Assembly (NCBI GenBank): GCA_050184585.1
Contig: JBFXAF010000009.1
Location: 37,695 to 101,694 of the forward strand
Direction: 5' to 3'
Origin: Rhizobiaceae bacterium
GTDB lineage: Bacteria; Pseudomonadota; Alphaproteobacteria; Rhizobiales; Rhizobiaceae
DNA: 64,000 nucleotides
The translations under genes and the position numbers were made by a program. Of this stretch, positions 2,738-42,412 are shown one piece after another; within the stretch, counting starts at the first letter, position 1, and each line of letters begins with the position of its first letter. The notes below the pieces were generated by a model. That model had not been told where the DNA came from. It worked only from the letters and a program-made list of their open reading frames with translations, and did not search any database.

Positions 2738-2815
2738 GGGGTATCGGGTCAGCTTGAAATCTGCCGGCTCGCCAGTCGCCTAGCGCCCCCTCTCTATGTA
2801 TGCTCACCGGAAAGC

Positions 2816-3118
2816 ATGGAACCTCGGAAAATGGCTCGGATGTTTGAGCGGTCCTTCGGAGGCAGGTCGGTGGACTTTGGCGTCTCCGACTCGCGACCTT
2901 ATGTTGCACCAACACCAAGGTCGAAGCGATCTGGCAAGCTAAAGGCGCCGACCATTCAGCAACCGCGTTCAGAGGAAAGTCGACTGCGAGACGAGTATGC
3001 GTTCTATAAGCGCGAAGAGAAGCGCCAACGTCGTGCCGGCACTGATAGATGGATCAAGCCGTTCCAACTATGCTTGGAGATTGAACGCTATTTCCAGATG
3101 CGCGGGAAAGTCTTGTGA
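2816..3118 (+). CDS. hypothetical small basic protein (uncertain)
   Basis: 100 aa ORF inside the low-GC islet, very basic, with no recognisable motif. Confidence 0.25.
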   Translation: MEPRKMARMFERSFGGRSVDFGVSDSRPYVAPTPRSKRSGKLKAPTIQQPRSEESRLRDEYAFYKREEKRQRRAGTDRWIKPFQLCLEIERYFQMRGKVL

Positions 3119-3347
3119 TGGCTACAAGGACCTAGCGCCCAAAAGCGCGGACTAACGTTATCGGCCATGCCGTGAGGGTCATGCGCATTGAGATAGCTAA
3201 GAAGCGGAGAATTGCAGCAGGCACCGGACCGAGCGCTGAGATTGCGAAGATAGCACAGTAATGCCCGTGGAGAAACAAATACCCTGCTAGACACAGGGAC
3301 AGGATTTGGGTAGTAGGGTATGCACGAGTCAGGACAGGACTTTTGCG

Positions 3348-4025
3348 ATGCCCGATTACCAAGAGGCGCTTGATAGCGCATTTCCCGAACACACCTACGG
3401 CGATACCATTCGCGCGTTGCGGGAGGGTGTTGCGCTCGGCGACGATGCCGTCAAAAGCCTCCCCTTTCTGGATACTCCAGTTGGAAAAGATTTCCGTGGG
3501 CTGGTGCGTCGCGCTGGCGTGATGTTTCGAATACATCAACTCTGTGAAGCTGGCGATCTGCCGTTCGTCGCTGAATTCACACCAATGCCCATTGGCAGCT
3601 GGCATTGGCTAGAAATCCGCAGCGGTCAATGTCGCGGCTTTCTGGTGAGGACGGTGGATAAAGACGCGTTCCCCGAAGATACACCGAACCAGCAGGACAA
3701 GCGCCACTCTAATCAGATCGAGATGTTCGATGACCCGAAGGTCGTCCAACTGCCGACTGCCAAGCTGTACACCGCGTGGCTATGTTACGGAGCCACCAAG
3801 AACGGAGCGCTGAGTCATGCCCTATGGGGTCTCCCGAGCGGGCAGGAGACCGAAACATGGCTGGCTCGGCGGGATGCCCTGAACGCCGTCCGCACAGTAG
3901 TTGTTAGACCTGAAGAAGCGAAGCGCCCCGCGGTGAATCCGCGTGATGCTATGAAATTTCGGGAGGAGGTTCAGGAAGCGCTGGAGCAGCAAAAGGGCGA
4001 GATCGATTCCGGCCAAGAGAAATGA
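3348..4025 (+). CDS. hypothetical protein, no recognisable domain (candidate toxin/effector of the islet module)
   Basis: First in-frame ATG is at 3348, with AGGACAGGA upstream; the track starts at TTG 3306. No TM segment or signal peptide. The stop overlaps the next ATG (ATGA at 4022..4025). Confidence 0.6.
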   Translation: MPDYQEALDSAFPEHTYGDTIRALREGVALGDDAVKSLPFLDTPVGKDFRGLVRRAGVMFRIHQLCEAGDLPFVAEFTPMPIGSWHWLEIRSGQCRGFLVRTVDKDAFPEDTPNQQDKRHSNQIEMFDDPKVVQLPTAKLYTAWLCYGATKNGALSHALWGLPSGQETETWLARRDALNAVRTVVVRPEEAKRPAVNPRDAMKFREEVQEALEQQKGEIDSGQEK

Positions 4026-5137
4026 CGAGCGAGCAGCATAAGGTGATCCCGGAGCGAATCCGGGAGGCGCGCGAAGCGGCTGGTTTGACCGACGAGCAAT
4101 TCGCTGATGCGATTGGCGTCTCGCGCGGTGCAGTTGGCCATTATGAGACTGGTTTGAGCGCGCCTAGGGGCGAAGTGTATGCCCGAATCATAGATGTGAC
4201 GGGACAGCCGCCGTCGTTTTTCACAACGCCTCGAAATAGGTCAGTATCCCGCTTCCGCATGCCTAATTGGCGCAGCTTGAAACGGATGCAGAGACCAGAG
4301 CGGTTGCGCATTGCTCGCCGGTTGGAATGGGCTTTCGACATCACGTCCTACCTAGAGCGGTTTATTGAACTGCCCCCCGTTCGATTGCCCGAAATCGATT
4401 TCGACTATGAGAACGACGACGACGACAAGATTGAATCTGTCGCAGAGGCGGTTCGAAAGCTCTGGGGGCTTGCCTATGAGCCGGTAACTGACCTTACCGC
4501 TGTGCTTGAATTCAACGGCTGCATCTTGATTGAAGAGTATGTGAAATGCGAGGACATGGATGCGGTTTCTCGCTGGCAAGGAGGGCGCCCCTATATCCTC
4601 TATTCCAAAGAAGTGCAGAGCACCTCGCGTACACTTTTCAATCTAGCCCATGAACTTGGTCATATCGTCCTACATGCCTCTGTCGAGGTAACCAGCAAGA
4701 ATCTAGACAAGATTGAACGACAGGCAAACAGGTTTGCTGGTGCATTTCTGTTGCCAAGGAAGCAGTTCGCTTCCGAGGTCGCAAGTACCTCCATAGACTA
4801 TTTATTGGCAATGAAACAGCGATGGCGTGTAGCAGTCGCTGCAATGGTTTATCGTTGCAAAGACCTTGAAATTCTAAACCCTATTCAGGTCCAGTATATT
4901 TGGAAGCAAATGAACATGCGGCGTATTCGTAAGAGGGAGCCGCTGGATAATGCGTTTAATCTGCCTTCACCGACAGTTTTGGCGACGGGCGTGCGAATGT
5001 TGATTGAGCACCGTGTTCAGCCAAAGGCACAGATTGTGGGCGCGCTGGCATTGAACACCTTCGATATCGAAAGTCTCAGTGGCTTGCAAAGGGAAGAACT
5101 GCAAACCAAGGTTGTCCAGTTGCGGCTTATAAAGTAA
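4022..5137 (+). CDS. XRE-family HTH fused to ImmA/IrrE (M78, COG2856-type) zinc metallopeptidase
   Basis: N-terminal HTH (LTDEQFADAIGVSRGAVGHYETG). Intact HEXXH (HELGH, aa 210-214, nt 4649..4663) in the context FNLAHELGHIVLH. Confidence 0.85.
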   Translation: MTSEQHKVIPERIREAREAAGLTDEQFADAIGVSRGAVGHYETGLSAPRGEVYARIIDVTGQPPSFFTTPRNRSVSRFRMPNWRSLKRMQRPERLRIARRLEWAFDITSYLERFIELPPVRLPEIDFDYENDDDDKIESVAEAVRKLWGLAYEPVTDLTAVLEFNGCILIEEYVKCEDMDAVSRWQGGRPYILYSKEVQSTSRTLFNLAHELGHIVLHASVEVTSKNLDKIERQANRFAGAFLLPRKQFASEVASTSIDYLLAMKQRWRVAVAAMVYRCKDLEILNPIQVQYIWKQMNMRRIRKREPLDNAFNLPSPTVLATGVRMLIEHRVQPKAQIVGALALNTFDIESLSGLQREELQTKVVQLRLIK

Positions 5138-5441
5138 ATATTTAGTACTTGGTGCCGAGCATTAAAATTTTCATATAGAGGTAGACGAGTCGGTTTTCAC
5201 CTGAAATCGAGTCCAAACTTTCACGATTGCGAGGGGGCGGCTGACGTCTCCGAACCGATGACGACGTGGTTGCGATGATTGACGCGGTTTCGTCCTACAA
5301 GCGCGGCAAGGCAGATTCCGACTGAAACACTGCCGGCACCCGCGACCATTTTTCCTCTGACATCACGCGGCATTTCGGTATGTTGCCGGCCGCGATGTCG
5401 GGCTGGCCCGGCGAAAGGACCCTTTCAACCGGGAGCCCCCG

Positions 5442-6623
5442 ATGTCCGGCCGGCCCGTATCCATCTTCCGCGAGTTCATCGACAGCGAATCCTCCGGCGG
5501 CATCGTCCTGATGGCGGCCGCCGCACTTGCGCTCGTCGTCGCGAACTCGGCGCTCGCGCCCGTCTACTTCGATACGCTGCATGCCTATCTCGGGCCGCTG
5601 AGCGTCTCCCACTGGATCAATGACGGCCTGATGGCGGTCTTCTTCCTGCTGGTCGGGCTGGAGATCAAGCGCGAGGTTCTCGACGGCCAGCTCTCCACCT
5701 GGCCGCGCCGCATTCTTCCAGGCATCGCCGCCGCCGGCGGCATGGTCGTGCCGGCGCTGATCTACGTGGCGCTCAACATCGACAATCCCGGCGCGCTGCG
5801 CGGCTGGGCGATCCCGACCGCCACCGACATCGCCTTCGCACTCGGCGTGCTGTCGCTGCTCGGCAGCCGCGTGCCGGCGTCGCTGAAGGTCTTTCTCACC
5901 GCGCTCGCCATCATCGACGACCTCGGCGCCGTCGTCATCATCGCGCTGTTCTACACAGGCGGCCTGGAAGTCTGGTGGCTGGCCGCCGCCTTCTTCATCC
6001 TGGCCCTCCTCGTCGGTCTCGGCCGCATGAAGGTCGACACGCTCTGGCCCTATCTCGCGCTCGGCCTGATGTTGTGGTTCTGCGTGCTCCAGTCGGGCGT
6101 CCACGCCACGCTCGCCGGCGTCGCGCTCGCCATGACCATCCCGCTGAAGCGCGCGCCCGGCATCGAACACGACCTCGAGGAATCGCCGCTGCACCGGCTG
6201 GAGCACGCGATCAGCAAGGTCGTGCCCTTCGTGATCGTGCCCGTCTTCGGCTTCGCCAATGCCGGCGTCTCCTTCGCCGGCATGACGCCCGCGGCGCTGC
6301 TCGATCCGCTCACCCTCGGCGTCGCGCTCGGCCTCGTCCTCGGCAAGCTCGTCGGTGTCTTCGGCACCACCTTCATCGCCGTCAGGTCCGGCCTGTCGGA
6401 CATGCCGGCCAATGCCGGCTGGTCTCATGTGCTTGGCGTTTCCCTGCTCTGCGGAATCGGCTTCACCATGAGCCTCTTCATCGGCCTGCTCGCCTTCGCC
6501 GACGACGTCGGTCTCCAGGACGACGTCAAGGTCGGAATCCTGACCGGCTCGCTCGTCGCCGCCCTGCTCGGAGCGGCGATCCTCGCGCTGGGTCCGAGGC
6601 CGTCGCCCGACCTCGCGGAGTGA
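5442..6623 (+). CDS. nhaA: Na+/H+ antiporter NhaA
   Basis: 393 aa polytopic protein with NhaA-typical motifs (HWINDGLMAVFFLLVGLEIKRE, IPTATDIAFALGV). Confidence 0.95.
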   Translation: MSGRPVSIFREFIDSESSGGIVLMAAAALALVVANSALAPVYFDTLHAYLGPLSVSHWINDGLMAVFFLLVGLEIKREVLDGQLSTWPRRILPGIAAAGGMVVPALIYVALNIDNPGALRGWAIPTATDIAFALGVLSLLGSRVPASLKVFLTALAIIDDLGAVVIIALFYTGGLEVWWLAAAFFILALLVGLGRMKVDTLWPYLALGLMLWFCVLQSGVHATLAGVALAMTIPLKRAPGIEHDLEESPLHRLEHAISKVVPFVIVPVFGFANAGVSFAGMTPAALLDPLTLGVALGLVLGKLVGVFGTTFIAVRSGLSDMPANAGWSHVLGVSLLCGIGFTMSLFIGLLAFADDVGLQDDVKVGILTGSLVAALLGAAILALGPRPSPDLAE

Positions 6624-6836
6624 CGGCGCGACTTCTCGGCGGAATCGCGCGCCCGTAACGCCCGAACGGCGGAATCCGGGCCCGTTTTCCTGGACAGGGA
6701 GGGCCTGTGAACAAATTTGGCGGACCCTGGCGGCACGGTCGCGCGCATGTGCTTGAAATGTCGGGAAAGATCGCGCGTCGAATTCTTCGCGGCGAGAAAA
6801 TCGATCCACCTGCCCGATCCCTCCCATATGGGGGGA

Positions 6837-8123
6837 TCAGATCCTGTCCCTCAGCGCGTACCAGTTGAGCGCGAGGAAGAGCAGCACCGAGCGGAAGCGG
6901 TCTCCGCCTGGGAAAGCCGGGATCTTCAGCTCCTCGAAGAGTTTCAGGCGGTCGCGGTTGCCCGCCACCGTTTCGGCGTAGAGCTTGCCGACGAAATTCG
7001 ACAGCATCACCCCATGCCCGGAATAGCCGCCGGCCGAGATCACGTTCGGCATCACCTCGCGCACGAACGGCTTTCGCGGCACGGTGATGCCCACGTAGCC
7101 GCCCCAGCCATGCGTGATCTCGACATCCTTAAGTGCTGGATATATCTCGGCAATCTGCCGGCGGATCGCGGCCGGGATGTCCTTCGGATCGGTGACGGCG
7201 TAGATCTCGCGCCCGCCGAAGAGTAGCCGCCCGTCCTTCGATTTCCGAAAATAGCGCACCACGAAACGCGAATCGTCGACCGATTCCCCGCCCGGCAGCA
7301 CCGGACTGTCCGAACCCAGCGGCACGGTCGCGCCGATGAACGAGCCGATCGGCATGATGTGCGACGTGCTCTGTTCTTCCAGCCCGGCATTGTAGGCGTT
7401 GGTGGCGATCAACCCCTTGTCGGCGTTGACTAATCCGGTCGGCGTCGTGACCACGACCTTGCCACCTTTGCTCTCGATCTTCAGCGCCCTGGTGTTCTCA
7501 TGCAGCTTCGCGCCGGCCTCGGCAGCCACGCGCGCCGTGCCGATGACCAGCTTGAGCGGGTGGATATGGCCGGTGCCGGTGTCGCGCGTGCCGCCGAAAT
7601 AGCGAGTGGAACCAAGGCGTTCCGCCGTTTCGGCCGCATCCATGAACGTGACGTGGTCATAGCCGGCGCGCTCCCGCATGTAGTCGGCGTACTTCCGGTA
7701 GTCGTCGACATAGCGCTTCTTGTGCGCGACCGAGAGCTGGCCCGGCGCGTAGTCGATCTCGATGCCGTTTGTCTCAGCGAAATCAAGAAGATGCGCCTTT
7801 GCCTCCTCGGCGAGGTCGAACAGGGCCTTGGCGCGTGTCCAGCCCCAGGCGGCCTCCATCTCGTCGAGCGACCCGCGCTGTCCGGTGCCGAGTTGCCCGC
7901 CATTGCGGCCCGACGCCCCATCGCCGAACCGGTTGGCGTCGATCAGCACGACGCTGGCTCCCGACTTGGCGAGATGCGTCGCCGCGGAAAGCCCGGTGAA
8001 TCCGCCGCCGACGATGGCGACGTCGGCCGATACCGACCCGTCAAGCGGCTGATATTGCGGACGTTCTCCCGCGGTGTCTTCGTACCAGGAGACGCCGGGG
8101 GAGATGGGGGACTGGTAGGTCAT
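6837..8123 (-). CDS. FAD-dependent oxidoreductase (DAO family, gamma-glutamylputrescine oxidase PuuB-like)
   Basis: Dinucleotide-binding motif VAIVGGGFTGLSAA. ATG at 8123 (MTYQSP...); the track extension to 8255 reads through the octamer repeat. Confidence 0.8.
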   Translation of the reverse strand: MTYQSPISPGVSWYEDTAGERPQYQPLDGSVSADVAIVGGGFTGLSAATHLAKSGASVVLIDANRFGDGASGRNGGQLGTGQRGSLDEMEAAWGWTRAKALFDLAEEAKAHLLDFAETNGIEIDYAPGQLSVAHKKRYVDDYRKYADYMRERAGYDHVTFMDAAETAERLGSTRYFGGTRDTGTGHIHPLKLVIGTARVAAEAGAKLHENTRALKIESKGGKVVVTTPTGLVNADKGLIATNAYNAGLEEQSTSHIMPIGSFIGATVPLGSDSPVLPGGESVDDSRFVVRYFRKSKDGRLLFGGREIYAVTDPKDIPAAIRRQIAEIYPALKDVEITHGWGGYVGITVPRKPFVREVMPNVISAGGYSGHGVMLSNFVGKLYAETVAGNRDRLKLFEELKIPAFPGGDRFRSVLLFLALNWYALRDRI

Positions 8124-30371: not shown

Positions 30372-30398
30372 TTAGCACTCCGGTTTAGTGAGTGCTAA
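30372..30398. promoter_or_regulatory. CIRCE operator (HrcA binding site)
   Basis: TTAGCACTC-N9-GAGTGCTAA, a perfect match to the consensus, 58 nt upstream of groES. Confidence 0.95.
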
Positions 30399-30455
30399 CA
30401 GTCCGGCCAGCCGGACGTCAGATTACCAGAAGATATGCATCGAGGATCCACGAAG

Positions 30456-30752
30456 ATGGCCAAGACGAAATTTCGCCCGCTCCACGACCGTGTGGTCGTC
30501 CGCCGGGTCGAGTCGGAGGAGAAGACCAAGGGCGGGATCATCATCCCCGACACCGCCAAGGAGAAGCCGCAGGAAGGCGAGATCATCGCCGTCGGTTCCG
30601 GCGCCCGCGACGAAAGCGGCAAGCTGGTGCCCCTGGACGTGAAGAAGGGCGACCGCATCCTGTTCGGCAAGTGGTCCGGCACCGAGGTGAAGCTCGATGG
30701 CGAGGATCTCCTCATCATGAAGGAGTCCGACATCATGGGCATCATCGGCTGA
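30456..30752 (+). CDS. groES: co-chaperonin GroES
   Basis: [47 protein letters not shown]. Confidence 0.95.
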
Positions 30753-30805
30753 TCACAGCGAACCCTTCCATCTGAAGACATTCGGGCCCGAGGCCCAGGA
30801 GCTAG

Positions 30806-32455
<1,650 letters not shown>

Positions 32456-32483
32456 GTCCGGCCGTCTAACCCTGACGAACAAA

Positions 32484-32513
32484 GAGAAGGGCGGCCGCAA
32501 GGCCGCCCTTCTC
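32484..32513 (+). terminator. groESL terminator hairpin
   Basis: gagaagggcggcc-gcaa-ggccgcccttctc (13-bp stem), 29 nt after the groEL stop. Confidence 0.65.
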
Positions 32514-32699
32514 GATTCAGCGGACTGCTGGACTTCGTTCGCAGCAGTTGATATTCAATCTCTATTGATCTCCTTTAGGCGCTGACGGGGGAACTGGCGT
32601 CGTGATCAACAGAGAGGCGTTCCTATCCCTGCCTATATTCTGTCTCGCCTGCAGCGGGACCGGTGAGCGGAACGCGTCCGGGCACGGCAGGCCGTAGCG

Positions 32700-35009
32700 A
32701 TGGCCGACGACGACGCCAGCTTCGACGATGGCGATGGTCGCAAGAGCCGCCGGCGTGCCGAGTTCGTGAACAACCTCCTGTTCGAGACACCCGGAGGAAC
32801 CCGTTTCACCCAGGGCAGTCCGATCCTTCCCAACATCTGGATGGCCTATGCCCGGAATCCGACCGAGCAGCTCGATCTGATCCTGAACGTTCACTACACC
32901 AAACACGGAGGCCCGGCGGCGGCGGTCGTCAGGAGTAGGCTTGCCGAGTATCGCGCCAAGGCGGCGAAGTTGCATCCAGCCATTGAGAGGAAGCCGGCCA
33001 GGATTTCATACATCCCGGGGCAGATCGCCGCCAAACTCTACTTCGACGAACTCATCCGCGTCGTTTTGCCATTGACGACCTGGTGGCAGGAGATACGCCG
33101 GAAGGCATGGGATACGCTGCGAGAATACGAACGGCGCGCAAACAAGCCCGCGGGCGCTGCCGACTGGGAAAGGTTTCCCATCCCGAGCGAGGGTCTCAAG
33201 AGGCAGTTCCATCACGCGCTGCTGCTGATGCGTCGCGAACTGCTTCCTCCGCGAACCTATGTCGGCTCGGACGACACCCCCGAGAGTAACATCGCCTTTA
33301 GCGGCGACCGGCGTGCGGTGGTCGACGCCATACCGAACGATCTGGTCTGGCTGGTTCGGGTGGTCGGCCTGATCGCCAACTGTTTCCGCAAGAGGGTCCC
33401 TCTGCTTTCCGAGGACGACGAGTTGTCGAGGCCGGTGGAAACGGACTTCGTAATTCGCCGCGCGACAGGCATCGAAAGCTCGGCGACGAGAGAAGCTCGC
33501 ATCAGGACGGCGGCGACCAACAACGCGGCCGAGGCGAACCGCCGGGCGATCGTGGAGAGCTTCTTCAGTCTCTTTGAAGACTATGACGAACAGGAGTTGC
33601 GCAGCGAGGCCGCGCATATCTTCCGGGCCAACAAGAACCGCCCCGTGCACCTTGCGGTGAGCGAATCCGCGCTGACGGTCAAAGCCGACGCGGCCCGCTT
33701 GCTCTTCAACGTCTCATGCGCCTCCATCACCTGGGCGGTGATCGACAGCGGCATCGACCGCAATCATCCCGCATTCCGCAACACGTCTCAGAAGCATGCT
33801 CTGGAGGTGCGTCAACGGCTCGCCGGGCGCGCCGACAGCGACGGCTACACGGACCAGGTTCACCTGGAGGACCTGGAAAGCCGCGTCGACAAGACAATCG
33901 ACTTCACCCGGCTCAGGGAACTGCTGGACGTCGGGGCCAACATCAGCGCCGACGGCGAGATCAGCAATGAGAACGAGGAGGAACGCGACGAACTGCTGAC
34001 GCGGATCGCCGTCAACATCGCCGCCCGCGAAGGCGTAGCCCTGGATAGGTCGCGCGGGATCTCGATCATCCCGCCGGAATTCCTCGGCAAGGCCAGGCAG
34101 CGGATGAGGGAGTTCCGCCAGCATATCAGGCAAGGGCGCAACATCGAATGGGCGGACATGGAGGACATGATCGTCGACAGGGAGCCGGCCGAGCCCGACA
34201 ATGACCATGGCACCCATGTGGCGGGCATCCTGGGGGCCGACTGGATCGAGGATATCGAGAGCGAGCGCGGCATCCCGATGGAGAGCCGTACGCGCAGGAT
34301 GCGCGGCGTTTGCCCCGACATCCGCCTGATCGATGTGCGTGTCTTCCGCCAGGACGGGCTGACCGACGAATTCGAACTGATGGCGGCGATACAGTACCTG
34401 CGCTGGATGAACTCCCGCGCCGGCTTCATGCAGGTGCATGGCGCCAACATGAGCCTGTCGCTGGTTCACGAGGTCCGCCGGTTTGCCTGCGGGCAGACGC
34501 CGATCTGCATCGAATGCGATGAAGCGACCGCGTCCGGCATGGTCATCGTGGCGGCGGCGGGCAACCGCGGCTTCGATTTCGAGGATCTCGACGAGATCCG
34601 CCCGAACGATGGCTATCGCACCGTTTCGGTCACCGATCCCGGCAACGCTGCGAGCGTGATCACCGTCGGCGCCACCCACCGGCGCCACCCCCACGAGTTC
34701 GGCGTCAGCTACTTCTCGAGCCGCGGCCCGACAGGCGACGGGCGCTTGAAGCCCGATGTCGTGGCTCCGGGAGAAAAGATCGAGGGACCCACGACGCGCG
34801 GCCAGGCCGGCGTCAAGGACGGCACCAGCATGGCGGCGCCGCATGTCAGCGGCGTGGCGGCGATGTTGATGGCAAGGCACACGGAACTCATCGGCGACCC
34901 GGCGAAGCTGAAGCAGATCATCTGCCGCACGGCGACCGATCTGGGCCGCGAACGCTATTTTCAGGGGCACGGCCTGGTCGATGCCCTGCGCGCGATGCAG
35001 TCGGTCTAA
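32700..35009 (+). CDS. S8 family (subtilase) serine peptidase, no signal peptide, long unassigned N-terminal region
   Basis: Catalytic triad in order: AVIDSGID (Asp349, nt 33744), HGTHVAG (His503, nt 34206), GTSMAAPHVSG (Ser710, nt 34827). The N-terminus MADDDASFDDGDGRK is not a signal sequence. Confidence 0.85.
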   Translation: MADDDASFDDGDGRKSRRRAEFVNNLLFETPGGTRFTQGSPILPNIWMAYARNPTEQLDLILNVHYTKHGGPAAAVVRSRLAEYRAKAAKLHPAIERKPARISYIPGQIAAKLYFDELIRVVLPLTTWWQEIRRKAWDTLREYERRANKPAGAADWERFPIPSEGLKRQFHHALLLMRRELLPPRTYVGSDDTPESNIAFSGDRRAVVDAIPNDLVWLVRVVGLIANCFRKRVPLLSEDDELSRPVETDFVIRRATGIESSATREARIRTAATNNAAEANRRAIVESFFSLFEDYDEQELRSEAAHIFRANKNRPVHLAVSESALTVKADAARLLFNVSCASITWAVIDSGIDRNHPAFRNTSQKHALEVRQRLAGRADSDGYTDQVHLEDLESRVDKTIDFTRLRELLDVGANISADGEISNENEEERDELLTRIAVNIAAREGVALDRSRGISIIPPEFLGKARQRMREFRQHIRQGRNIEWADMEDMIVDREPAEPDNDHGTHVAGILGADWIEDIESERGIPMESRTRRMRGVCPDIRLIDVRVFRQDGLTDEFELMAAIQYLRWMNSRAGFMQVHGANMSLSLVHEVRRFACGQTPICIECDEATASGMVIVAAAGNRGFDFEDLDEIRPNDGYRTVSVTDPGNAASVITVGATHRRHPHEFGVSYFSSRGPTGDGRLKPDVVAPGEKIEGPTTRGQAGVKDGTSMAAPHVSGVAAMLMARHTELIGDPAKLKQIICRTATDLGRERYFQGHGLVDALRAMQSV

Positions 35010-35027
35010 GCTGGCGGGGAGGTTGGC

Positions 35028-36218
35028 GTGGCGACGGATCTGGTGCTCAAGGTTCTGAGGGCGAAGAAGGGCGACTGCCTGATCCTGCAGGCGGATGGCG
35101 CCACGGTGCTGATCGATGGCGGACCCGGCGGCGTGTTCCGGGCATTTCTCGAGCCCGTGCTCGAGGAATTGCGACCCGGCGCCGGCATCAACAAAGAGAG
35201 CCAACCGATCGATCTGATGATGGTCAGCCACATCGACGACGACCACATCGCCGGAATTCTCGACCTCTTGAGAAAGCTCGAGGCCCAGAATCAGGCGCAA
35301 CAGAACCCGATCGTCGAGATATTCCAAGCCTGGCACAACAGCTTTGCCGACATCGTCGGCGGCGTCGCGGCGCCCACCGGTGCGGTCAAGGCGGAAGCCG
35401 CCTCGCTCAGCGCGGCGATGACCGAACTCCTGGGCGAGGAGACATCGCACAGCACCGAACTCGTGCTCGCCGGGGTGGCGCAAGGACGGGAACTGAAGCT
35501 TCATCTGGATGCGCAGGGGATCCCGACGAACCAGGGGTTTCAAGACGAACTCGTGGCTCAGCGGGCCGGCGTCGCGTTCACGTCGATGACGGGGGGCCTG
35601 TCGATCACCGTGATCGGCCCGTCTAAGGCCGAACTCGACGCCCTGAAGGCGAAGTGGAAGACAGAGCTTCCGGCGATTCTCGCGAAGAAAAACTCGGCTT
35701 CGGCAGCGGAAGTCGCGGAAGCGAAGGAACGCGCCCTCAAGCTCGACAAGTCGGTGGCGAACCTGTCGAGCATCGTCTGTGTAGCCGCGGTCAACGGCAA
35801 ACGCGCGCTACTGACCGGCGATGCGCGCGGCGACATGATCATGCCTTGGCTTGTCGAGGCCGGCTACATGCAAGCGGGGGAGACGGTCATGTTCGACATC
35901 GTCAAGCTGCCGCATCATGGAAGCCACTACAACATCTCGCCCGAGTTCTTCCGCACGGTGCTCGCGACGCACTATGTCGTCAGCGGCGACGGGGAGCACG
36001 GCAATCCCGAACCGACAGCGCTGCAGTGGCTGTTCGAGGCCCGCCCCGAACTGGACTACACGGTCTGGATGACCTACGGCCCCGACCAGCTGATGCAGCA
36101 TCCGAAATTCCGGAAGGCAGGAAACGACCAGGCACTGTCGAACCTCTTGACCCCGGAACGGCGAGCAGTCCTTCGGTTTCCTGATGGGCAAGAAATCTTC
36201 ATGGATGTCGAGGTCTAG
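35028..36218 (+). CDS. MBL-fold (ComEC/Rec2-type) metallo-hydrolase-like protein
   Basis: GTG start with GGGGAGG upstream. Motifs: KGDCLILQADGATVLIDGG, SHIDDDHIAG (nt 35229..35246), LLTGDARGD, VKLPHHGS. Confidence 0.7.
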   Translation: MATDLVLKVLRAKKGDCLILQADGATVLIDGGPGGVFRAFLEPVLEELRPGAGINKESQPIDLMMVSHIDDDHIAGILDLLRKLEAQNQAQQNPIVEIFQAWHNSFADIVGGVAAPTGAVKAEAASLSAAMTELLGEETSHSTELVLAGVAQGRELKLHLDAQGIPTNQGFQDELVAQRAGVAFTSMTGGLSITVIGPSKAELDALKAKWKTELPAILAKKNSASAAEVAEAKERALKLDKSVANLSSIVCVAAVNGKRALLTGDARGDMIMPWLVEAGYMQAGETVMFDIVKLPHHGSHYNISPEFFRTVLATHYVVSGDGEHGNPEPTALQWLFEARPELDYTVWMTYGPDQLMQHPKFRKAGNDQALSNLLTPERRAVLRFPDGQEIFMDVEV

Positions 36219-36229
36219 CACCAGCCGCC

Positions 36230-36265
36230 GGCGGATGAATGCCGACGGTGTCGGAACCATCCGCC
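36230..36265 (+). terminator. hairpin directly after the MBL-like gene (no T-tract)
   Basis: ggcggatg ... catccgcc with an inner ccga-cggtg-tcgg stem, starting 12 nt after the stop. Confidence 0.3.
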
Positions 36266-36479
36266 ACCCGCGCCGTTGATCCCGCGTCCGACAGCCGTCG
36301 AAAGAAGGCCGAGGACGACAAGACGCCTCCAGCACTGTCACAGGTGCGGGAGGCGTCTTCGCGACCGCGAGCGGCGTCGGACGTATTTTGCGTCCCGACC
36401 TCATCCTGCGGAAAGTGCTTCCTTGGCCTCGGGAGTGCTTGGTCCTAGAGCCTGACGATCGTCCGTCACGGAGCCGGCC

Positions 36480-37259
36480 ATGCAGGAATTTTTCCTCTTC
36501 GCTATCGTTGGTTTCCTGGCCCAGGCCGTCGACGGTGCGCTCGGCATGGCCTACGGCGTCATCTCGTCGACGACGCTGCTGGCCTTCGGCGTTTCACCCG
36601 CGCATGCTTCCGCCGCCGTCCACGCGGCCGAACTCTTCACCACCGCCGCCTCAGGCTCGTCGCACCTCTATCATCGCAACATCGACTGGAAGCTGTTCTG
36701 GCGGTTGACGCCGTTCGGGATCGCCGGCGGCTGCCTTGGCGCTTTCGTCCTGACATCCTTCGAGGGTGACATGGTGAAGCCGTTCGTGACGCTCTACCTC
36801 GCGCTCGTGGGGGCGTTCCTGGTGTTCCGCTCGTTCCGGAAGATTCCGTCGAAGCCGGTGCCTACGCAGGTCGTTGCGCCGCTCGGGGCGGCGGGTGGGT
36901 TCCTCGATGCCGCTGGGGGCGGGGGCTGGGGGCCGATCGTGACGACCGGACTGCTCGGCGCTGGCGCGCCTCCGCGCTATGTCATCGGCACCGTGAATGC
37001 GGCCGAGTTCCTGATCACCCTTGCGGTATCGTCCGCCTTCGTCGTCGCGATGGTCACCGGTCACTGGGAGGAGGCGGGAGCCTGGAGCGAAAACCTGGCC
37101 GCCATCGCGGGCCTCATCATCGGTGGACTGATGGCCGCGCCGCTCGCGGGCTATCTCGTCAGACGGATTCCGGAGGTTGCGCTACTCAGGCTGGTCGGAT
37201 GCCTGATCGTGCTGGTCGCCGGATTCCAGTCGATCCAGATACTCGGCCTGACGGGGTAG
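36480..37259 (+). CDS. TauE/SafE (TSUP) family anion exporter
   Basis: 259 aa polytopic protein. N-terminus FLAQAVDGALGMAYGV is typical of the TSUP family. Confidence 0.85.
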   Translation: MQEFFLFAIVGFLAQAVDGALGMAYGVISSTTLLAFGVSPAHASAAVHAAELFTTAASGSSHLYHRNIDWKLFWRLTPFGIAGGCLGAFVLTSFEGDMVKPFVTLYLALVGAFLVFRSFRKIPSKPVPTQVVAPLGAAGGFLDAAGGGGWGPIVTTGLLGAGAPPRYVIGTVNAAEFLITLAVSSAFVVAMVTGHWEEAGAWSENLAAIAGLIIGGLMAAPLAGYLVRRIPEVALLRLVGCLIVLVAGFQSIQILGLTG

Positions 37260-37267
37260 GTTCGGCC

Positions 37268-37930
37268 TCAGTCCGTAAAGAGTCCGGGGTTCGCCGCTGC
37301 GAGCTTCGGCAGCGACGTGAGCACTTCGGAGAGATGGCCACGCATGGCAGCGTCGGCTCCGGATGCATCGCGTATCTTGAGGGCCTCGACGATCCTGACG
37401 TGCTGGTCGATGATGACGTCGAGCGGCGTCGCGTTGGGAAGGGACAGGTATCTCACCCGGTCCATCTGGGCCTTGAGACTTTCCAGCACCCGCCACGCAT
37501 CCTCGCAGTCGGCGCCGCCTGCGATCGCCTGGTGGAATGCGTCATCGAGGCGCAGGAACGCGACGTTGTCGCCTCGTGCGGCGGCGGTGCGCTGACCTTC
37601 GACGGCGGCCTCGATCGCGGCCAGGTCCGCGGGTTCGACTTCCGCGACCGCCTTGCGGACGATGGCGACCTCGATGGCTTCCCGCAGGAAGCGGGCGTTC
37701 TGAACCTCGCGGATCGAGATCAGTCGGACGAAGGTGCCACGCTGAGGGCGGATTTCGACCAGCCCGACTTCGGCGAGCTTGATGAACGCCTCGCGCACGG
37801 GTTGCCGCGAAACGCCGAGCTGACGACCGATCTCGGCCTCCGATAGCGGTTCGCCCGGCCGGAAACCGAGCTGGACGATCGCCTTGCGAATCGAATCGTA
37901 GACGCGGCTGCCGATCGAGACCTGCCGCAT
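37268..37930 (-). CDS. GntR family transcriptional regulator (FadR/FCD subfamily)
   Basis: HTH (SEAEIGRQLGVSRQPVREAFIKL). ATG 37930 (MRQVSIG...) is preferred; the track start at 37990 lacks an RBS. Confidence 0.8.
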   Translation of the reverse strand: MRQVSIGSRVYDSIRKAIVQLGFRPGEPLSEAEIGRQLGVSRQPVREAFIKLAEVGLVEIRPQRGTFVRLISIREVQNARFLREAIEVAIVRKAVAEVEPADLAAIEAAVEGQRTAAARGDNVAFLRLDDAFHQAIAGGADCEDAWRVLESLKAQMDRVRYLSLPNATPLDVIIDQHVRIVEALKIRDASGADAAMRGHLSEVLTSLPKLAAANPGLFTD

Positions 37931-38052
37931 CCTGCGGCTCTCATCCCCCAGCGTCGCGAGTTCAAATCCCAGCGTCATGTTGACAGTCATATACTACCAT
38001 ACTAGCTTGGGGAAGGTCGCCGTCGTCGGCGAGAGGCTTTTGGGAGGAAGTC

Positions 38053-39030
38053 ATGAAATCCATGTCCAGTCGGATCCTGCTTGCCGCGGTCGCCGTGTCG
38101 TTCTCCTTCGGCGCGTCGGCGGCGGACCATACATTGAGCGTGAACACCGCGCTCGCCGTCACCGACCCCTTGTACAAGGGTCTCGAGACTTTCGCCGCCA
38201 ATGTCGCCACCGCAAGCGGCGGCCGCGTCGAGGTGAAGCTTTTCCCCAACTCGCAGCTTGGACCCGACGAGGACGTCCTCGAGCAGGCCCGCGCGGGTGC
38301 GCCCGTCGCAGTGGTCGTGGACGGCGGCCGCCTGGCCAATTTCGTGCCGGAGTTCGGCGTGCTCGGCGCGCCTTACCTGGCGAACGGCTATGACGGCATC
38401 CGCAAGGTGGTGACGTCCGACAAGTTCGAGGAGTGGGTGAAGAAGCTTCACGACGCCTCTGGCCACCAGATCCTGTCGTTCAACTGGTGGCAGGGCGAAC
38501 GCCACCTGTGGACCGCCGGTCCGGTGAGCAAGCCCGCCGACCTCGCCGGCAGCCGCATGCGCACGCCCGGCGCGCCGGTCTGGGTCGAGACCGTGACGGC
38601 CATGGGCGCCGTACCGACCCCGATGCCGTTCGCCGAGGTCTATTCCGCGCTGGAGCAGAAGGTGATCGATTCCGTCGAATGCCAGCTGCCGGCCGGGCAG
38701 GGCGCGAAGCTCTTCGAGGTCACCAAGGTGCTGACCAAGACCGGCCACATCAACCTGATCACCGGCCTTGTGACCAGCGCGTCCTGGTATGATGGTCTGC
38801 CGGCCGATCTGCAGAAGGTGCTGCGCGACGAGGCGTTGAAGGCGGGCGACGTCGCCTCATACGGCACGCGCGACGCGCTGGCGAGCATCGAGGAGGATCT
38901 CAAGAAGTCGGGCATGACCGTCAACGAGATCGACCTGACGGTGTTCCGCGACGCCACCGCCGGCGTCTACGAGAAGCTCGGCTACGCCGCGCTGAAGGAC
39001 GAGTTGCAGGCCATCGCCAACGCGCAGTAG
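38053..39030 (+). CDS. dctP: TRAP transporter substrate-binding protein
   Basis: Signal peptide and DctP-family length. Followed by the Q and M subunit genes. Confidence 0.9.
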   Translation: MKSMSSRILLAAVAVSFSFGASAADHTLSVNTALAVTDPLYKGLETFAANVATASGGRVEVKLFPNSQLGPDEDVLEQARAGAPVAVVVDGGRLANFVPEFGVLGAPYLANGYDGIRKVVTSDKFEEWVKKLHDASGHQILSFNWWQGERHLWTAGPVSKPADLAGSRMRTPGAPVWVETVTAMGAVPTPMPFAEVYSALEQKVIDSVECQLPAGQGAKLFEVTKVLTKTGHINLITGLVTSASWYDGLPADLQKVLRDEALKAGDVASYGTRDALASIEEDLKKSGMTVNEIDLTVFRDATAGVYEKLGYAALKDELQAIANAQ

Positions 39031-39049
39031 CGTACTCGGCGTCGAGATC

Positions 39050-39074
39050 GGGCGGGACGCGCCGCGTCCCGCCC
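39050..39074 (+). terminator. intercistronic hairpin after the TRAP SBP gene
   Basis: gggcgggacgc-gcc-gcgtcccgccc followed by gttt. Confidence 0.45.
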
Positions 39075-39100
39075 GTTTCGTTCGGAAAGGAGGCCCGGCC

Positions 39101-39619
39101 GTGCTCAAGCGTCTGTCGCAGGTCGAACTGGCTTTCGCGATCGGTCTGCTCGCCTTGATCACGGGCCTCGTCTTCGTCGCCGCCATCATGCGCTTCTTCG
39201 GCAGGCCGCTGATCTGGTCGGTGGACATGGCGCAGCTCCTGTTCATCTGGCTGTGCATGATCGGGGCCACGCGGGCCATGCGCGAGAAATCGCACCTCGG
39301 AATGGAGGTGCTGGCCAAACATTTCGGCTACCGCCGGCAATTCTGGGTCGAGATGGCCTGCGCGGCGATCATCCTCGCCTTCCTCGGCATCCTGACGGTC
39401 GAAGGCTACAGGCTCACCATGCTGAACCGCGAGCGCACCTTCGGCGATTCAACGCTCTCCTATGCCTGGGTGACGGCGGCGGTGCCCGTCGGCTGCGTGA
39501 TGCTCGCAATCGCGCTCGCCTACAACATGGTCGTCGCCTGGATGCGACGCGCGGAAGGAATGCTCGTCTATACGCGCACGCGCGCCGACGGCGAGCAGGT
39601 CGAGACCTTCGAATTGTAG
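39101..39619 (+). CDS. dctQ: TRAP transporter small permease
   Basis: GTG start with AAGGAGG RBS. 172 aa with 4 TM segments. Confidence 0.85.
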   Translation: MLKRLSQVELAFAIGLLALITGLVFVAAIMRFFGRPLIWSVDMAQLLFIWLCMIGATRAMREKSHLGMEVLAKHFGYRRQFWVEMACAAIILAFLGILTVEGYRLTMLNRERTFGDSTLSYAWVTAAVPVGCVMLAIALAYNMVVAWMRRAEGMLVYTRTRADGEQVETFEL

Positions 39620-39629
39620 GCGCGGGGCG

Positions 39630-40910
39630 ATGCTGCTGATCTCCGTCGTCTTCGTCGTCCTGATGGTGATCGGAATGCCGGTCGCCTTCGCCACGGGCAT
39701 CGCCGGCTTCGTCTTCTTCATGACCAATTCCGGCATGCCGATGTCGATCGGCGTGCAGAAGATCGCCTCGATGAGCCAGAGCTTCCCGCTGCTGGCCGTG
39801 CCGTTCTTCGTGCTCGCCGGCCACCTGATGAACGAGAGCGGCATCACCGGCCGGCTGCTCAAGGTGTCGCTGGTCGCGGTCGGCTGGATGTCGGGCGGCC
39901 TCGCGCAGGTGGCGATCCTTCTTTCCACGCTGATGGGCGGCGTGTCGGGCTCGGCGGTCGCCGATGCCGCCATGGAAGCGCGCATCCTCGGGCCCGCGAT
40001 GATCCAGAAGGGCTACGGCAAGGGCTTTTCGGCCGCCGCCATCGCCGTCGGCTCACTAATCACGGCGACGATACCGCCCTCGATCGGCCTCATCCTCTAC
40101 GGCTACATCGGCAATGTCTCGATCGGCCGCCTCTTCCTCGCCGGGATCATTCCGGGTTTCATGATGATGGCGGTGCTCATGCTCACCACCTACGTGATCG
40201 CCCGGCGTCGCGGCTACGTCGTGGCCAACAGCGAGAAGCCGACCGTGCGCGCGCTTGCGGCGGCGGCATGGGAAGCGAAGTGGGCGCTGTTCTTTCCGGT
40301 CGCGCTGGTCCTGGCCATCCGCGGCGGGGTCTTCACGCCGTCCGAGGTCGGCTCCTTCGCGGTGGTCTACGCGCTGGTCATCGGCTTCCTGGCGCATCGG
40401 GAACTGACATTCGCGAAAGCGTGGCGGGCCTTCGGGCATGCCTGTTCGGATGTCGGGCTGATCATGCTGATCATCCTGATGTCGGGCATGGTCGGCTTCG
40501 CGACCATCTACCTCCAGGTCCCGCAGAACCTCGCCAACTGGATGCTTGACGGGCTGACCGATCCGAACGTCATCGTGATCGCCATCCTGCTCTTCCTGCT
40601 GATCGCCGGGCTGGCCCTTGAATCGACGGTCATGGTCCTTCTGCTGACACCCATTTTCGTGCCCATCATCACCAAGATCGGCATCGACCCGGTGCATTTC
40701 GGCATCCTGATGATGTCGATCGTCACTCTCGGCGGAATGACCTGGCCGAGCGGATCGGCGATGTTCGCGGTATGCTCGCTGATGAACGTTTCGATCGAGG
40801 AATACTCGATCGCCTCCATTCCGTTTCTCGCTGCGGTCGTGGCGCTGATCGTCTTCCTCCTGTTCACGCCCGGCCTGGTCCTGTGGCTGCCGAACATGGC
40901 GTTCGGCTAG
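39630..40910 (+). CDS. dctM: TRAP transporter large permease
   Basis: 426 aa polytopic DctM-type protein. Confidence 0.9.
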   Translation: MLLISVVFVVLMVIGMPVAFATGIAGFVFFMTNSGMPMSIGVQKIASMSQSFPLLAVPFFVLAGHLMNESGITGRLLKVSLVAVGWMSGGLAQVAILLSTLMGGVSGSAVADAAMEARILGPAMIQKGYGKGFSAAAIAVGSLITATIPPSIGLILYGYIGNVSIGRLFLAGIIPGFMMMAVLMLTTYVIARRRGYVVANSEKPTVRALAAAAWEAKWALFFPVALVLAIRGGVFTPSEVGSFAVVYALVIGFLAHRELTFAKAWRAFGHACSDVGLIMLIILMSGMVGFATIYLQVPQNLANWMLDGLTDPNVIVIAILLFLLIAGLALESTVMVLLLTPIFVPIITKIGIDPVHFGILMMSIVTLGGMTWPSGSAMFAVCSLMNVSIEEYSIASIPFLAAVVALIVFLLFTPGLVLWLPNMAFG

Positions 40911-41020
40911 GGCCGTCCCGAAAATATCGATTAGACCGACGCCACGGCCGCCGCGGGCGGTAGCGGTCCCGGCATCGCTTGACTATGGTGCGCGCGATTT
41001 CGACCGACCACGGGAAGACC

Positions 41021-42412
41021 ATGACGAAGACCCGCACCGAGACCGACACGTTCGGACCGATCGAGGTGGCCGCCGACCGCTACTGGGGCGCGCAGGCCGA
41101 GCGTTCGCTGGGCAATTTCAGGATCGGCTGGGAAAAGCAGCCGCTGTCGATCGTGAGAGCGCTGGGCATCGTCAAGCGCGCCGCCGCCGAGACCAACATG
41201 GCGCTCGGCCGGCTGGACCCGGCGCTCGGCAAGGCGATCGTCGATGCCGCGCAGGAGGTGATCGACGGCAGGCTGAACGACCATTTTCCGCTGGTCGTCT
41301 GGCAGACCGGCTCGGGTACGCAATCGAACATGAACGCCAACGAGGTGATCTCGAACCGGGCGATCGAGATGCTCGGTGGCGCGATGGGCTCCAAGAAGCC
41401 CGTGCATCCCAACGATCACGTCAACATGAGCCAGTCGTCCAACGACACCTATCCGACGGCCATGCACATAGCCTGCGCGGAGCGCATCGCTCACGACCTG
41501 CTGCCGGCGCTGAAGCACTTGCATGCGGCGCTCGACGCCAAGGCGAAGGCCTTCGACCACATCGTCAAGATCGGCCGCACGCACACCCAGGACGCGACGC
41601 CCCTCACCCTCGGTCAGGAGTTCGGCGGCTACGCCGCACAGGTTGCCTCGTCGATCAGCCGTATCGAGATGACGCTCCCGGGCCTGCAGGAACTGGCGCA
41701 GGGCGGTACGGCGGTCGGCACCGGCCTCAACGCGCCGGTCGGCTTTGCCGAGAAGGTGGCCGAGACGATCGCGGCGATCACGGGCATCGCGTTCACGAGC
41801 GCACCCAACAAGTTCGAGGCGCTGGCAGCGCACGATTCGATGGTGTTCTCGCATGGCGCGATCAATGCCGCGGCTGCTGCACTCTTCAAGATCGCCAACG
41901 ACATCCGCTTCCTGGGCTCGGGCCCGCGCTCGGGACTGGGCGAACTTTCGCTGCCGGAAAATGAGCCTGGCTCGTCGATCATGCCCGGCAAGGTGAACCC
42001 GACGCAGTGCGAGGCGATGACGCAGGTGTGCGTCCAGGTGTTCGGCAACCACGCGGCGCTGACCTTCGCCGGCAGCCAGGGCCATTTCGAACTCAACGTC
42101 TACAACCCGCTGATGGCCTACAATTTCCTGCAATCGGTGCAGCTGATGTCCGATGCGGCGATCTCGTTCACCGACAATTGCGTGGTGGGCATCGAGGCGC
42201 GAGAGGAGAACATCAAGGCCGCGCTCGACCGCTCGCTGATGCTGGTGACGGCGCTGGCGCCCAGGATCGGCTACGACAATGCGGCCAAGATCGCCAAGAC
42301 GGCGCACAGGAACGGTACGACCCTCCGCGACGAGGCGGTCGGCGGCGGTTATGTGACGGACGCCGAGTTCGACGCGCTGGTGCGTCCGGACATGATGACG
42401 CGGCCAGGATGA
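41021..42412 (+). CDS. fumC: class II fumarate hydratase
   Basis: ATG 41021 ([16 protein letters not shown]...). Has the [15 protein letters not shown] signature. Confidence 0.95.

Follow-up and report, generated by a model that had tools for sequence, protein, structure and literature searches.

In the 64,000-nt stretch of a Rhizobiaceae contig analysed here, hereafter the window, a cassette of two genes between groEL and tauE encodes a subtilase of the S8 family (ORF1) and a soluble ComEC-like hydrolase of the metallo-β-lactamase (MBL) fold (ORF2). The pair belongs to the S8-associated clade of protease-linked MBLs, which has already been catalogued in silico, and, by analogy with the characterised members of this class, the cassette is probably a cell-suicide immune or toxin module representing the S8 branch of the protease-gated MBL pro-nucleases. 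A first-pass annotation made from the sequence alone had proposed a conflict or abortive-infection-like function for the two genes, and this remains the best reading, since the cassette is self-contained, the pair is conserved, and ORF2 falls within a family of MBLs that serve as defence effectors.

Work published in 2025 established that bacterial immunity repeatedly uses nucleases licensed by a protease (Tuck et al. 2025; Evans et al. 2025). HamM of the Hachiman system and Avs1a of AVAST are gated pro-nucleases in which two insertions block the active site; a trypsin-like partner protease cuts after Ile118 and Ile218 in HamM and after Ile134 and Ile234 in Avs1a, and the cutting of these loops frees an indiscriminate DNase, resulting in abortive-infection-type defence. 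The caspase-linked Canu works alike, and subtilase-associated MBLs appear as a 'subtilase' track in Fig. S2/4A of the same study (Tuck et al. 2025, Science; PMC12799240). VcMBL is doubly cleaved (I133/I233) by VcAvs2 to give a Zn-dependent double-stranded DNase, and the protease-associated MBLs were divided into Clade 1 with trypsin, Clade 2 with caspase and Clade 3 with S8 subtilisin-like proteases (Fig. 1B), 'distinct sensor associations' being noted for Clades 2 and 3; a protease-activated α/β-hydrolase zymogen was described as well (Evans et al. 2025, bioRxiv 10.1101/2025.11.14.688446).

The experiments of both groups were confined to the trypsin and caspase branches, with the S8 clade shown in trees, so that the mechanism proposed for an S8–MBL pair rests on analogy (Tuck et al. 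2025; Evans et al. 2025). The earlier supposition that no S8–MBL system had been described is thus true of an experimental description, while the association as such has been published in both papers, in the second of them as Clade 3. Literature searches returned no named S8–MBL or patatin–S8 system beyond these two reports. New relative to the text of both are the private N-terminal domain of the protease, the insertion between its catalytic Asp and His, and the patatin, Tle1-like and Vps62-like companions found at related loci.

The hydrolase and its presumed activating protease

ORF1 and ORF2 are co-directional and separated by 18 bp, and a Shine–Dalgarno-like GGGGAGG (35016–35022, forward strand) lies 5 nt 5' of the GTG start codon of ORF2. 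Coordinates, gap and GTG start had been given exactly in the first-pass annotation, which had also named this site, and the motifs quoted there for both proteins were found at their residues, with the Asp349/His503/Ser710 triad of ORF1 intact. A hydrophobic N-terminus, a transmembrane (TM) segment or a signal peptide was absent not only from ORF1, for which the lack of a signal peptide had been noted before, but also from ORF2 and 52 homologues of ORF1; both proteins are therefore considered cytoplasmic.

ORF2 (35028–36218, forward strand; 396 aa), the presumed gated pro-nuclease, carries the motifs KGDCLIL at residue 14, VLIDGG at 27, SHIDDDHIAG at 67, LLTGDARGD at 261 and KLPHHGS at 293. The metal motif is encoded at 35229–35246, and the ligands H68, D70, D72, H73, D265, H296 and H297 are invariant in an alignment of 46 sequences. 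Pfam gave weak generic Lactamase_B matches only. The PADLOC models matching ORF2 were those of defence MBLs, the best being LmuA-MBL from a Lamassu subtype (PDLC03854; 4.1e-55, residues 6–339), followed by Avs1a (2.6e-44) and the reverse transcriptase (RT)-associated MBL RTasMBL (1.6e-38). The ComEC-like kind to which ORF2 had been assigned at first reading is thus a family that serves as the effector in Avs, Lamassu, Hachiman and DRT systems.

In the source metagenome-assembled genome (MAG), the public annotation names ORF1 an 'S8 family peptidase' and ORF2 a 'ComEC/Rec2 family competence protein', and the latter label is misleading. The MBL domain of ComEC/Rec2 (9ic4) is the closest solved fold and has the same metal-binding motifs as ORF2. 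However, ComEC is an integral membrane protein of DNA uptake, whereas ORF2 is soluble (maximum KD19 = 1.23, no TM segment), lacks the competence and OB domains, and has extra residues in two insertions. Identity as a ComEC/Rec2 competence protein was rejected on these grounds, the TIGR00361 score of 13.4 bits being far below the cut-off of 190.

The AlphaFold2 (AF2) model of ORF2 has a pLDDT of 88.9 and a pTM of 0.90, with two weaker blocks at residues 111–150 (pLDDT 63–68) and 211–250 (75–81). A Foldseek search with this model placed the phosphorylcholine esterase Pce (2bib) at the top (1.4e-11), together with the ComEC MBL domain (E = 2.7e-11, TMt 0.72, 266 aa), and RNase J/CPSF73 followed these two. 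The profile of the ORF2 family aligns with 9ic4 in two halves, residues 4–80 with 4–79 and 254–323 with 168–233, and ~85 extra residues lie between them. Two segments of low conservation coincide with the weaker blocks of the model: insertion 1 (aa ~109–147, 35352–35468, forward strand), extra relative to ComEC and a candidate for the first gating loop, and insertion 2 (aa ~211–239, 35658–35744, forward strand), which contains indels and is a candidate for the second.

The positions of these insertions were compared with those of Avs1a from a genuine Avs1abc locus on a plasmid of V. parahaemolyticus (L093). The two proteins align over their full length with 28% identity, against 35–50% between ORF2 and S8-associated MBLs. 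In this Avs1a, the published cut positions are occupied by Ile133 and Ile234; the former corresponds to A148 of ORF2, at the C-terminal edge of insertion 1 and just N-terminal to a conserved S-V-x-Q-G-R motif, and the latter maps within insertion 2. Therefore, ORF2 carries both insertions at homologous positions.

ORF1 (32700–35009, forward strand; 769 aa, ATG start) is presumed to be the activating protease. Pfam Peptidase_S8 spans its residues 346–758 (E = 7e-44), and the PADLOC 'subtilase' model PDLC03014 matches at 1e-35. The S8 catalytic domain (aa ~315–769, 33642–35006, forward strand) has the triad in the motifs AVIDSGID at 346 (D349, codon 33744–33746), HGTHVAG at 503 (H503, codon 34206–34208) and GTSMAAPHVSG at 708 (S710, codon 34827–34829); all three residues, as well as the oxyanion Asn622, are invariant among the 52 homologues. 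Between the catalytic Asp and His lies an insertion of ~118 aa (aa 360–477, 33777–34130, forward strand), absent from solved subtilases, of which 9ues/3afg and subtilisin BPN' match ORF1 best; the phmmer alignment to 9ues/3afg skips from residue 359 of ORF1 to 478. The insertion contains the family-conserved motifs TLDFTxLRxLLD and IDWxDLE. The catalytic domain also has a cysteine cluster, FACGxTPICxEC (34473–34520, aa 592–607), in which C597 and C603 are invariant and C606, like C538, is nearly so; this conservation points to either a structural metal site or a redox switch. To our knowledge, such a cluster has not been described for classical subtilisins.

The N-terminal domain of ORF1 (aa 1–~312, 32700–33635, forward strand) is private to this S8 family. 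The first-pass annotation had been unable to assign this region, and indeed residues 1–345 gave no Pfam match. The AF2 model of the domain has a pLDDT of 85.7 and a pTM of 0.86, and an I9-like subtilase propeptide was rejected as its identity because no structural match to one was found. Conserved motifs comprise R35-x-T37-Q38-D-S-P, E117, P124 and W128-W129. A profile of the domain matched 872 representative proteins, 649 of them at E ≤ 1e-10; among the best 150 of the 872, the domain is N-terminal in proteins of 600–850 aa or occurs in shorter proteins or fragments, a fusion protein described below (P0486) being the one exception among the matches listed. The domain is the obvious candidate for a regulatory or sensory role.

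Conservation of the pair and its companion genes

Relatives of ORF1 were sought in one genome per GTDB species; at least 594 were found, and the best 80 loci with enough downstream sequence were analysed. In 74 of these 80 informative loci, the S8 gene is followed by an MBL gene on the same strand after a gap of 6–227 bp. The 80 loci come from Alpha-, Beta- and Gammaproteobacteria, Acidobacteriota, Actinomycetota, Methylomirabilota, Gemmatimonadota, Planctomycetota, Verrucomicrobiota, Chloroflexota, Myxococcota and Bacteroidota, i.e., the pair is conserved across about ten phyla and not only among close relatives. The identity matrices of the S8 and MBL proteins are correlated (r = 0.86, Spearman 0.73, Mantel p = 0.001 for 68 pairs), with a contribution from the shared species phylogeny; this is consistent with co-transfer and co-evolution of the two genes in addition to common ancestry.

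Public gene names would suggest another explanation, in which an ordinary secreted or nutritional subtilase and a housekeeping or competence MBL are neighbours by chance: the protein P0121 is named 'ComEC/Rec2 family competence protein' by NCBI, and some homologues are called 'serine protease AprX' by JGI. This explanation is effectively refuted by the adjacency and co-divergence of the two genes across phyla and the lack of export signals and TM segments in both proteins and the 52 homologues. The lack of ComEC membrane domains in ORF2, with its low TIGR00361 score, and the absence of the cassette from related genomes also count against it.

Several loci depart from the common arrangement. 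At one of them (L071), the S8 gene is frameshifted and lies beside an insertion sequence (IS). In a Rhodobacterales MAG (L006), the S8 protein is 49% identical to ORF1 and the MBL is replaced by a 653-aa fusion of Trypsin_2 and Endonuclease_NS domains (5412–7370), which could represent a cascade of proteases with another nuclease as its end point. P0486 (1107 aa; L095 2715–8173) combines in one chain an MBL with 38% identity to ORF2, an N-domain of the ORF1 type and an S8 domain; upstream of its gene lie another S8 gene, coding for 593 aa, and an ORF of 108 aa. This protein may have arisen by genuine fusion, as a Rosetta-stone protein, or may be an artefact of assembly or frameshift, and as a single instance it is weak evidence.

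Gene architectures were tallied over 88 related loci. The bare S8–MBL pair accounts for 45 of them, followed by patatin–S8–MBL (17), S8–MBL–Vps62-like (5), S8–MBL–patatin (4) and patatin–S8–MBL–Vps62-like (2); six loci include a Tle1-like α/β-hydrolase (PF09994/DUF2235), one has S8 with the trypsin::Endonuclease_NS fusion, and eight have S8 only, four of the latter being at contig ends. Patatin-like phospholipases of ~350–390 aa are thus present at 23 of the 88 loci, directly 5' of S8 in 19 and 3' of the MBL in four (examples are L021, L032, L068, L034, L055, L020, L069, L018, L059, L011, L088 and L090). The patatin of L088, the one tested, matched no PADLOC model. The Vps62-like protein, ~410 aa long with a weak match to Vps62 (PF06101), occurs at seven loci; it and the Tle1-like hydrolase were found at L001 (11524–12723), L005, L008, L062, L067, L004 (10999–12240), L056, L057, L061, L065, L020 and L069. 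None of the patatin, Tle1-like and Vps62-like companions is present in the cassette of the window. The first-pass statement that the pair has no ATPase or other partner is accordingly correct for this locus and does not extend to the family, in which patatin recurs and, less often, Tle1-like or Vps62-like genes are added.

Relatives of the pair are also found on plasmids. On the Paroceanicella plasmid pD4M1C, genes for a patatin, a hypothetical protein, S8 and MBL adjoin rep/par; on an S. meliloti plasmid, patatin–S8–MBL is bracketed by IS elements; on an S. medicae plasmid, S8–MBL lies near a caspase-family gene. The conjugative plasmid pCMU01 of M. extorquens CM4 (L089) carries an S8 gene with a different N-terminal region together with an MBL gene, and IS21 alongside. 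Immediately 5' of this S8–MBL pair is a triad of adenylate/guanylate cyclase, E2-domain and TIR-domain genes (1773–5019), with ImmA/IrrE upstream, and the region has the appearance of a minor defence island carried by a conjugative plasmid.

Proposed mechanism and rival explanations

In the mechanism proposed here, ORF2 would be synthesised in the cytoplasm as the inactive zymogen of a ComEC-like DNase that depends on metal, with insertions ~109–147 and ~211–239 blocking its active site. ORF1 would be kept inactive by its N-terminal domain of ~310 aa and/or by the 118-aa insertion in its catalytic domain, until a trigger, most probably a protein of phage origin or a state brought about by infection, releases or oligomerises it. 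Activated ORF1 would cut both loops of ORF2, and ORF2, once unmasked, would attack DNA without discrimination, so that the infected cell is arrested or killed in the manner of abortive infection. The cleavage of ORF2 by ORF1, the DNase activity, the trigger and the antiviral phenotype are all modelled on HamM/HamA, Avs1a/Avs1b, VcMBL/VcAvs2 and CanC/CanA. The replacement or addition of effectors at related loci (the nuclease fusion of L006; patatin, Tle1-like and Vps62-like proteins), the P0486 fusion and the plasmid-borne relatives were counted in favour of this mechanism.

The gating of a latent death effector by a dedicated, adjoining protease has parallels elsewhere. Bacterial gasdermins and the fungal HET-Q1, licensed by the subtilisin-like HET-Q2, follow this scheme, although their effector is a membrane pore former, whereas the effector here is a predicted nuclease. 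In animals, the parallel is caspase-activated DNase.

Compared with the S8-associated clade (Clade 3), the cassette shows no difference in kind: it is the same pair of an S8 protease and a ComEC-like MBL with two insertions. The MBLs of Hachiman (HamMAB), AVAST (Avs1a/Avs1b; VcMBL/VcAvs2), Lamassu and DRT are homologous to ORF2 over the full length and have the same insertion positions and metal ligands, and the logic by which a protease cuts the loops to yield a DNase is presumably shared. However, the protease of these trypsin/MBL modules is trypsin-like and fused to a STAND NTPase, HamA, LmuA or an RT, whereas the S8 protease here has no such fusion; their gene order is MBL–protease, as opposed to protease–MBL here; and they have a conserved Ile at the cut positions, unlike the S8 clade. 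Canu (CanABC) resembles the cassette in that a standalone protease is encoded 5' of a homologous gated MBL nuclease. Nevertheless, the protease of Canu is a caspase that bears an Ig-like domain and is accompanied by CanB, while ORF1 is an S8 protease with an unrelated N-domain, and a CanB-like gene is absent, so membership of Canu was rejected. AVAST type 1 (Avs1abc) was likewise rejected, since ORF2 scored 187 bits against NCBIfam Avs1a (NF041809), under the equivalog cut-off of 420 bits, and Avs1b and Avs1c are absent at the locus. Lamassu was rejected because only the MBL model of one subtype matches and the flanking genes are groEL and tauE, with no LmuB.

IetAS, which reportedly pairs the ATPase IetA with the S8 peptidase IetS and is said to have been described by Gao and colleagues in 2020, resembles the cassette in that an S8 protease located in the cytoplasm is associated with defence, but it is without an MBL partner. 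ORF1 scored 16 bits against NF042956 (cut-off 900 bits) and 8e-10 against the PADLOC model, and the cassette has no ATPase gene; IetAS was therefore rejected as well.

Several observations weigh against the reading of the cassette as a gated immune module. Experiments on any S8-associated member were not found in the literature. The loops of the S8 clade have no conserved Ile or Gly, the best conserved positions being A148 and A236 (~80% each), which hints at a different P1 preference, and in the AF2 model of ORF2 the loops appear as helices, not as disorder. The N-domain of ORF1 gave no Foldseek match in the PDB or BFVD (best E ~1), and searches of Pfam, PDB and BFVD revealed no known sensor, NTPase or oligomerisation domain in the pair; STAND, HamA/B, LmuA/B, RT and Ig-like or TPR sensors were found neither among the N-domain matches nor flanking the pair. 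Three Acidobacteriota loci (L036, L045 and L047) keep S8 without an MBL. The cassette of the window and those of L001, L002, L004 and L091 sit amid housekeeping genes, and among 103 neighbour ORFs of 21 chromosomal loci no PADLOC family recurs: the matches are to generic kinase and ATPase models, and patatin alone is recurrent. ORF2 homologues were absent from 50,697 phage records, and relatives of the S8 family from 2.9 million viral contigs. Finally, judging by the modelled structure, a non-nuclease substrate of ORF2 is conceivable, with Pce among the top matches.

The last of these points bears on the possibility that the two proteins are functionally linked but that the MBL is not a nuclease, small molecules or cell-envelope components being instead the substrates of an esterase or phosphodiesterase activity, or that the protease has other targets or is itself the toxin, the latter as proposed for IetS. 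Besides the Foldseek result for Pce, the weak similarity to the PADLOC IetS model and the presence of S8 alone at some loci would fit this explanation. However, the ComEC MBL domain is an equal match by structure and a better one by sequence, the homology of ORF2 to MBLs with demonstrated DNase activity extends over the entire protein, the MBL of L006 is exchanged for another nuclease (Endonuclease_NS), and the IetS score is far under its cut-off; we regard this explanation as very unlikely.

The genomic context, in turn, raises the question of whether the same biochemistry serves a purpose other than antiviral defence, such as stress-triggered death, addiction to or competition between mobile genetic elements, or a lipase-centred toxin in which the nuclease is secondary. 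The lack of a defence-island signal around chromosomal loci, the failure to find phage-borne copies in either viral dataset, the frequent addition of phospholipases (patatin, Tle1-like) and the plasmid copy adjoining rep/par genes would all be in line with such a role. On the other hand, all protease–MBL modules tested experimentally so far are antiphage (Tuck et al. 2025; Evans et al. 2025), at the plasmid locus L089 the pair has TIR/cyclase/E2 and ImmA genes as neighbours, and defence genes typically show such a patchy distribution, so a non-antiviral role appears unlikely. Proximity to known defence genes, a check suggested in the first-pass annotation, was seen at the plasmid locus L089 and not at the 21 chromosomal loci. 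Because a chromosomal island signal is lacking, the case for defence is built chiefly on the homology of the effector, on modularity and on the patchy distribution rather than on embedding in defence islands.

Within the preferred reading of a protease-gated immune module, one could further hypothesise that the S8 clade represents a minimal, NTPase-independent form of immunity, in which the N-domain is a new direct infection sensor or auto-inhibitor and the subtilase is a hub licensing several latent effectors: an MBL DNase and, elsewhere, patatin/Tle1-type phospholipases, Vps62-like proteins and the trypsin::NucA fusion as part of a protease cascade. We consider this extension possible but doubtful.

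The pairing of S8 and MBL in itself is no longer surprising to specialists. The locus nevertheless illustrates the third, subtilisin branch in a clean and minimal form, with two genes, no NTPase and sharp boundaries, and as such a good entry point to a family with at least 594 matches in species-representative genomes. The domain presumed to control the protease has no recognisable homologue; knowledge of how it would sense infection, and of the sites at which the S8 protease would act on the loops, would round off the view of this class of effectors, and a study of the N-domain could reveal a new sensing principle.

Boundaries and neighbourhood of the cassette

The groEL–tauE junction was traced in three relatives (L085, L086 and L087) via tauE orthologues with ~80% identity. 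In L086 and L087, groES–groEL is followed by ~370 bp and then tauE, with nothing between, whereas in Aquibium oceanicum (L085) the site holds a 59-aa ORF and an Rrf2 gene instead of the cassette. BLASTN homology between the window and these sister loci ends at 32513, reappears weakly at ~36301 and is clear from 36480, i.e., at tauE; the S8–MBL pair is therefore a lineage-specific insertion of ~3.8 kb (32514–36300, forward strand) between the groEL terminator and the conserved upstream region of tauE. The cassette is accessory, patchy and unrelated to groESL or tauE, as the first-pass description of a self-contained unit had held, and a functional tie to groESL was rejected since sister genomes lack the cassette. 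At the ends of the insertion, neither terminal repeats, direct or inverted, nor a tRNA, integrase or transposase were found.

The groEL terminator hairpin (32484–32513) is very strong, as predicted earlier, with −34 kcal/mol and z = −7.2. It is followed by a non-coding stretch of 186 bp (32514–32699, forward strand), presumably the promoter and 5' untranslated region of the cassette, in which a promoter scan revealed no sigma-70-like site and BLASTN no homology to the sister junctions. At the other end, the hairpin reported at 36230–36265 (forward strand) does exist 12 nt past the ORF2 stop codon, as a stem-loop of 8+5 bp that may be a weak terminator; it is unexceptional at the given GC content (−26.9 kcal/mol in a 67-nt context, z = −1.7, equalled by 12 of 200 shuffles) and has no U-tract. 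The GC content of the cassette had been described as somewhat below that of the flanks, and it is indeed 2–3 points lower, 63.6% overall (64.1% for ORF1 and 62.7% for ORF2) compared with ~66% in the flanks, although not as low as the 55–57% estimated from hand-counted samples.

An imperfect inverted repeat with 26-nt arms of 81% complementarity is located 5' of tauE (36310–36369). It is kept in sister genomes (L087 6804–6857), where a T-run follows, and may be a terminator or regulatory hairpin of the native intergenic region rather than a part of the cassette. An Rfam search of the whole window returned no family, including at this repeat.

The interval from groEL to fumC (36480–42412 of the window past the cassette) is a variable hotspot relative to L085, L086 and L087. 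In the window, the cassette is followed by tauE, a GntR gene (37268–37990, reverse strand), TRAP transporter genes DctPQM (38053–40910) and fumC; the order in L086 and L087 is tauE, a 59-aa ORF and fumC, and L085 has Rrf2 ahead of tauE, an inverted DctMQP and a CNNM gene. The S8–MBL cassette is thus one among several lineage-specific insertions in the groEL–fumC stretch. Long antisense ORFs lie opposite ORF1/ORF2 (609 aa, 33714–35543, reverse strand) and groEL (701 aa, 30395–32500); such ORFs commonly arise as artefacts in coding sequence of high GC content and are not genes.

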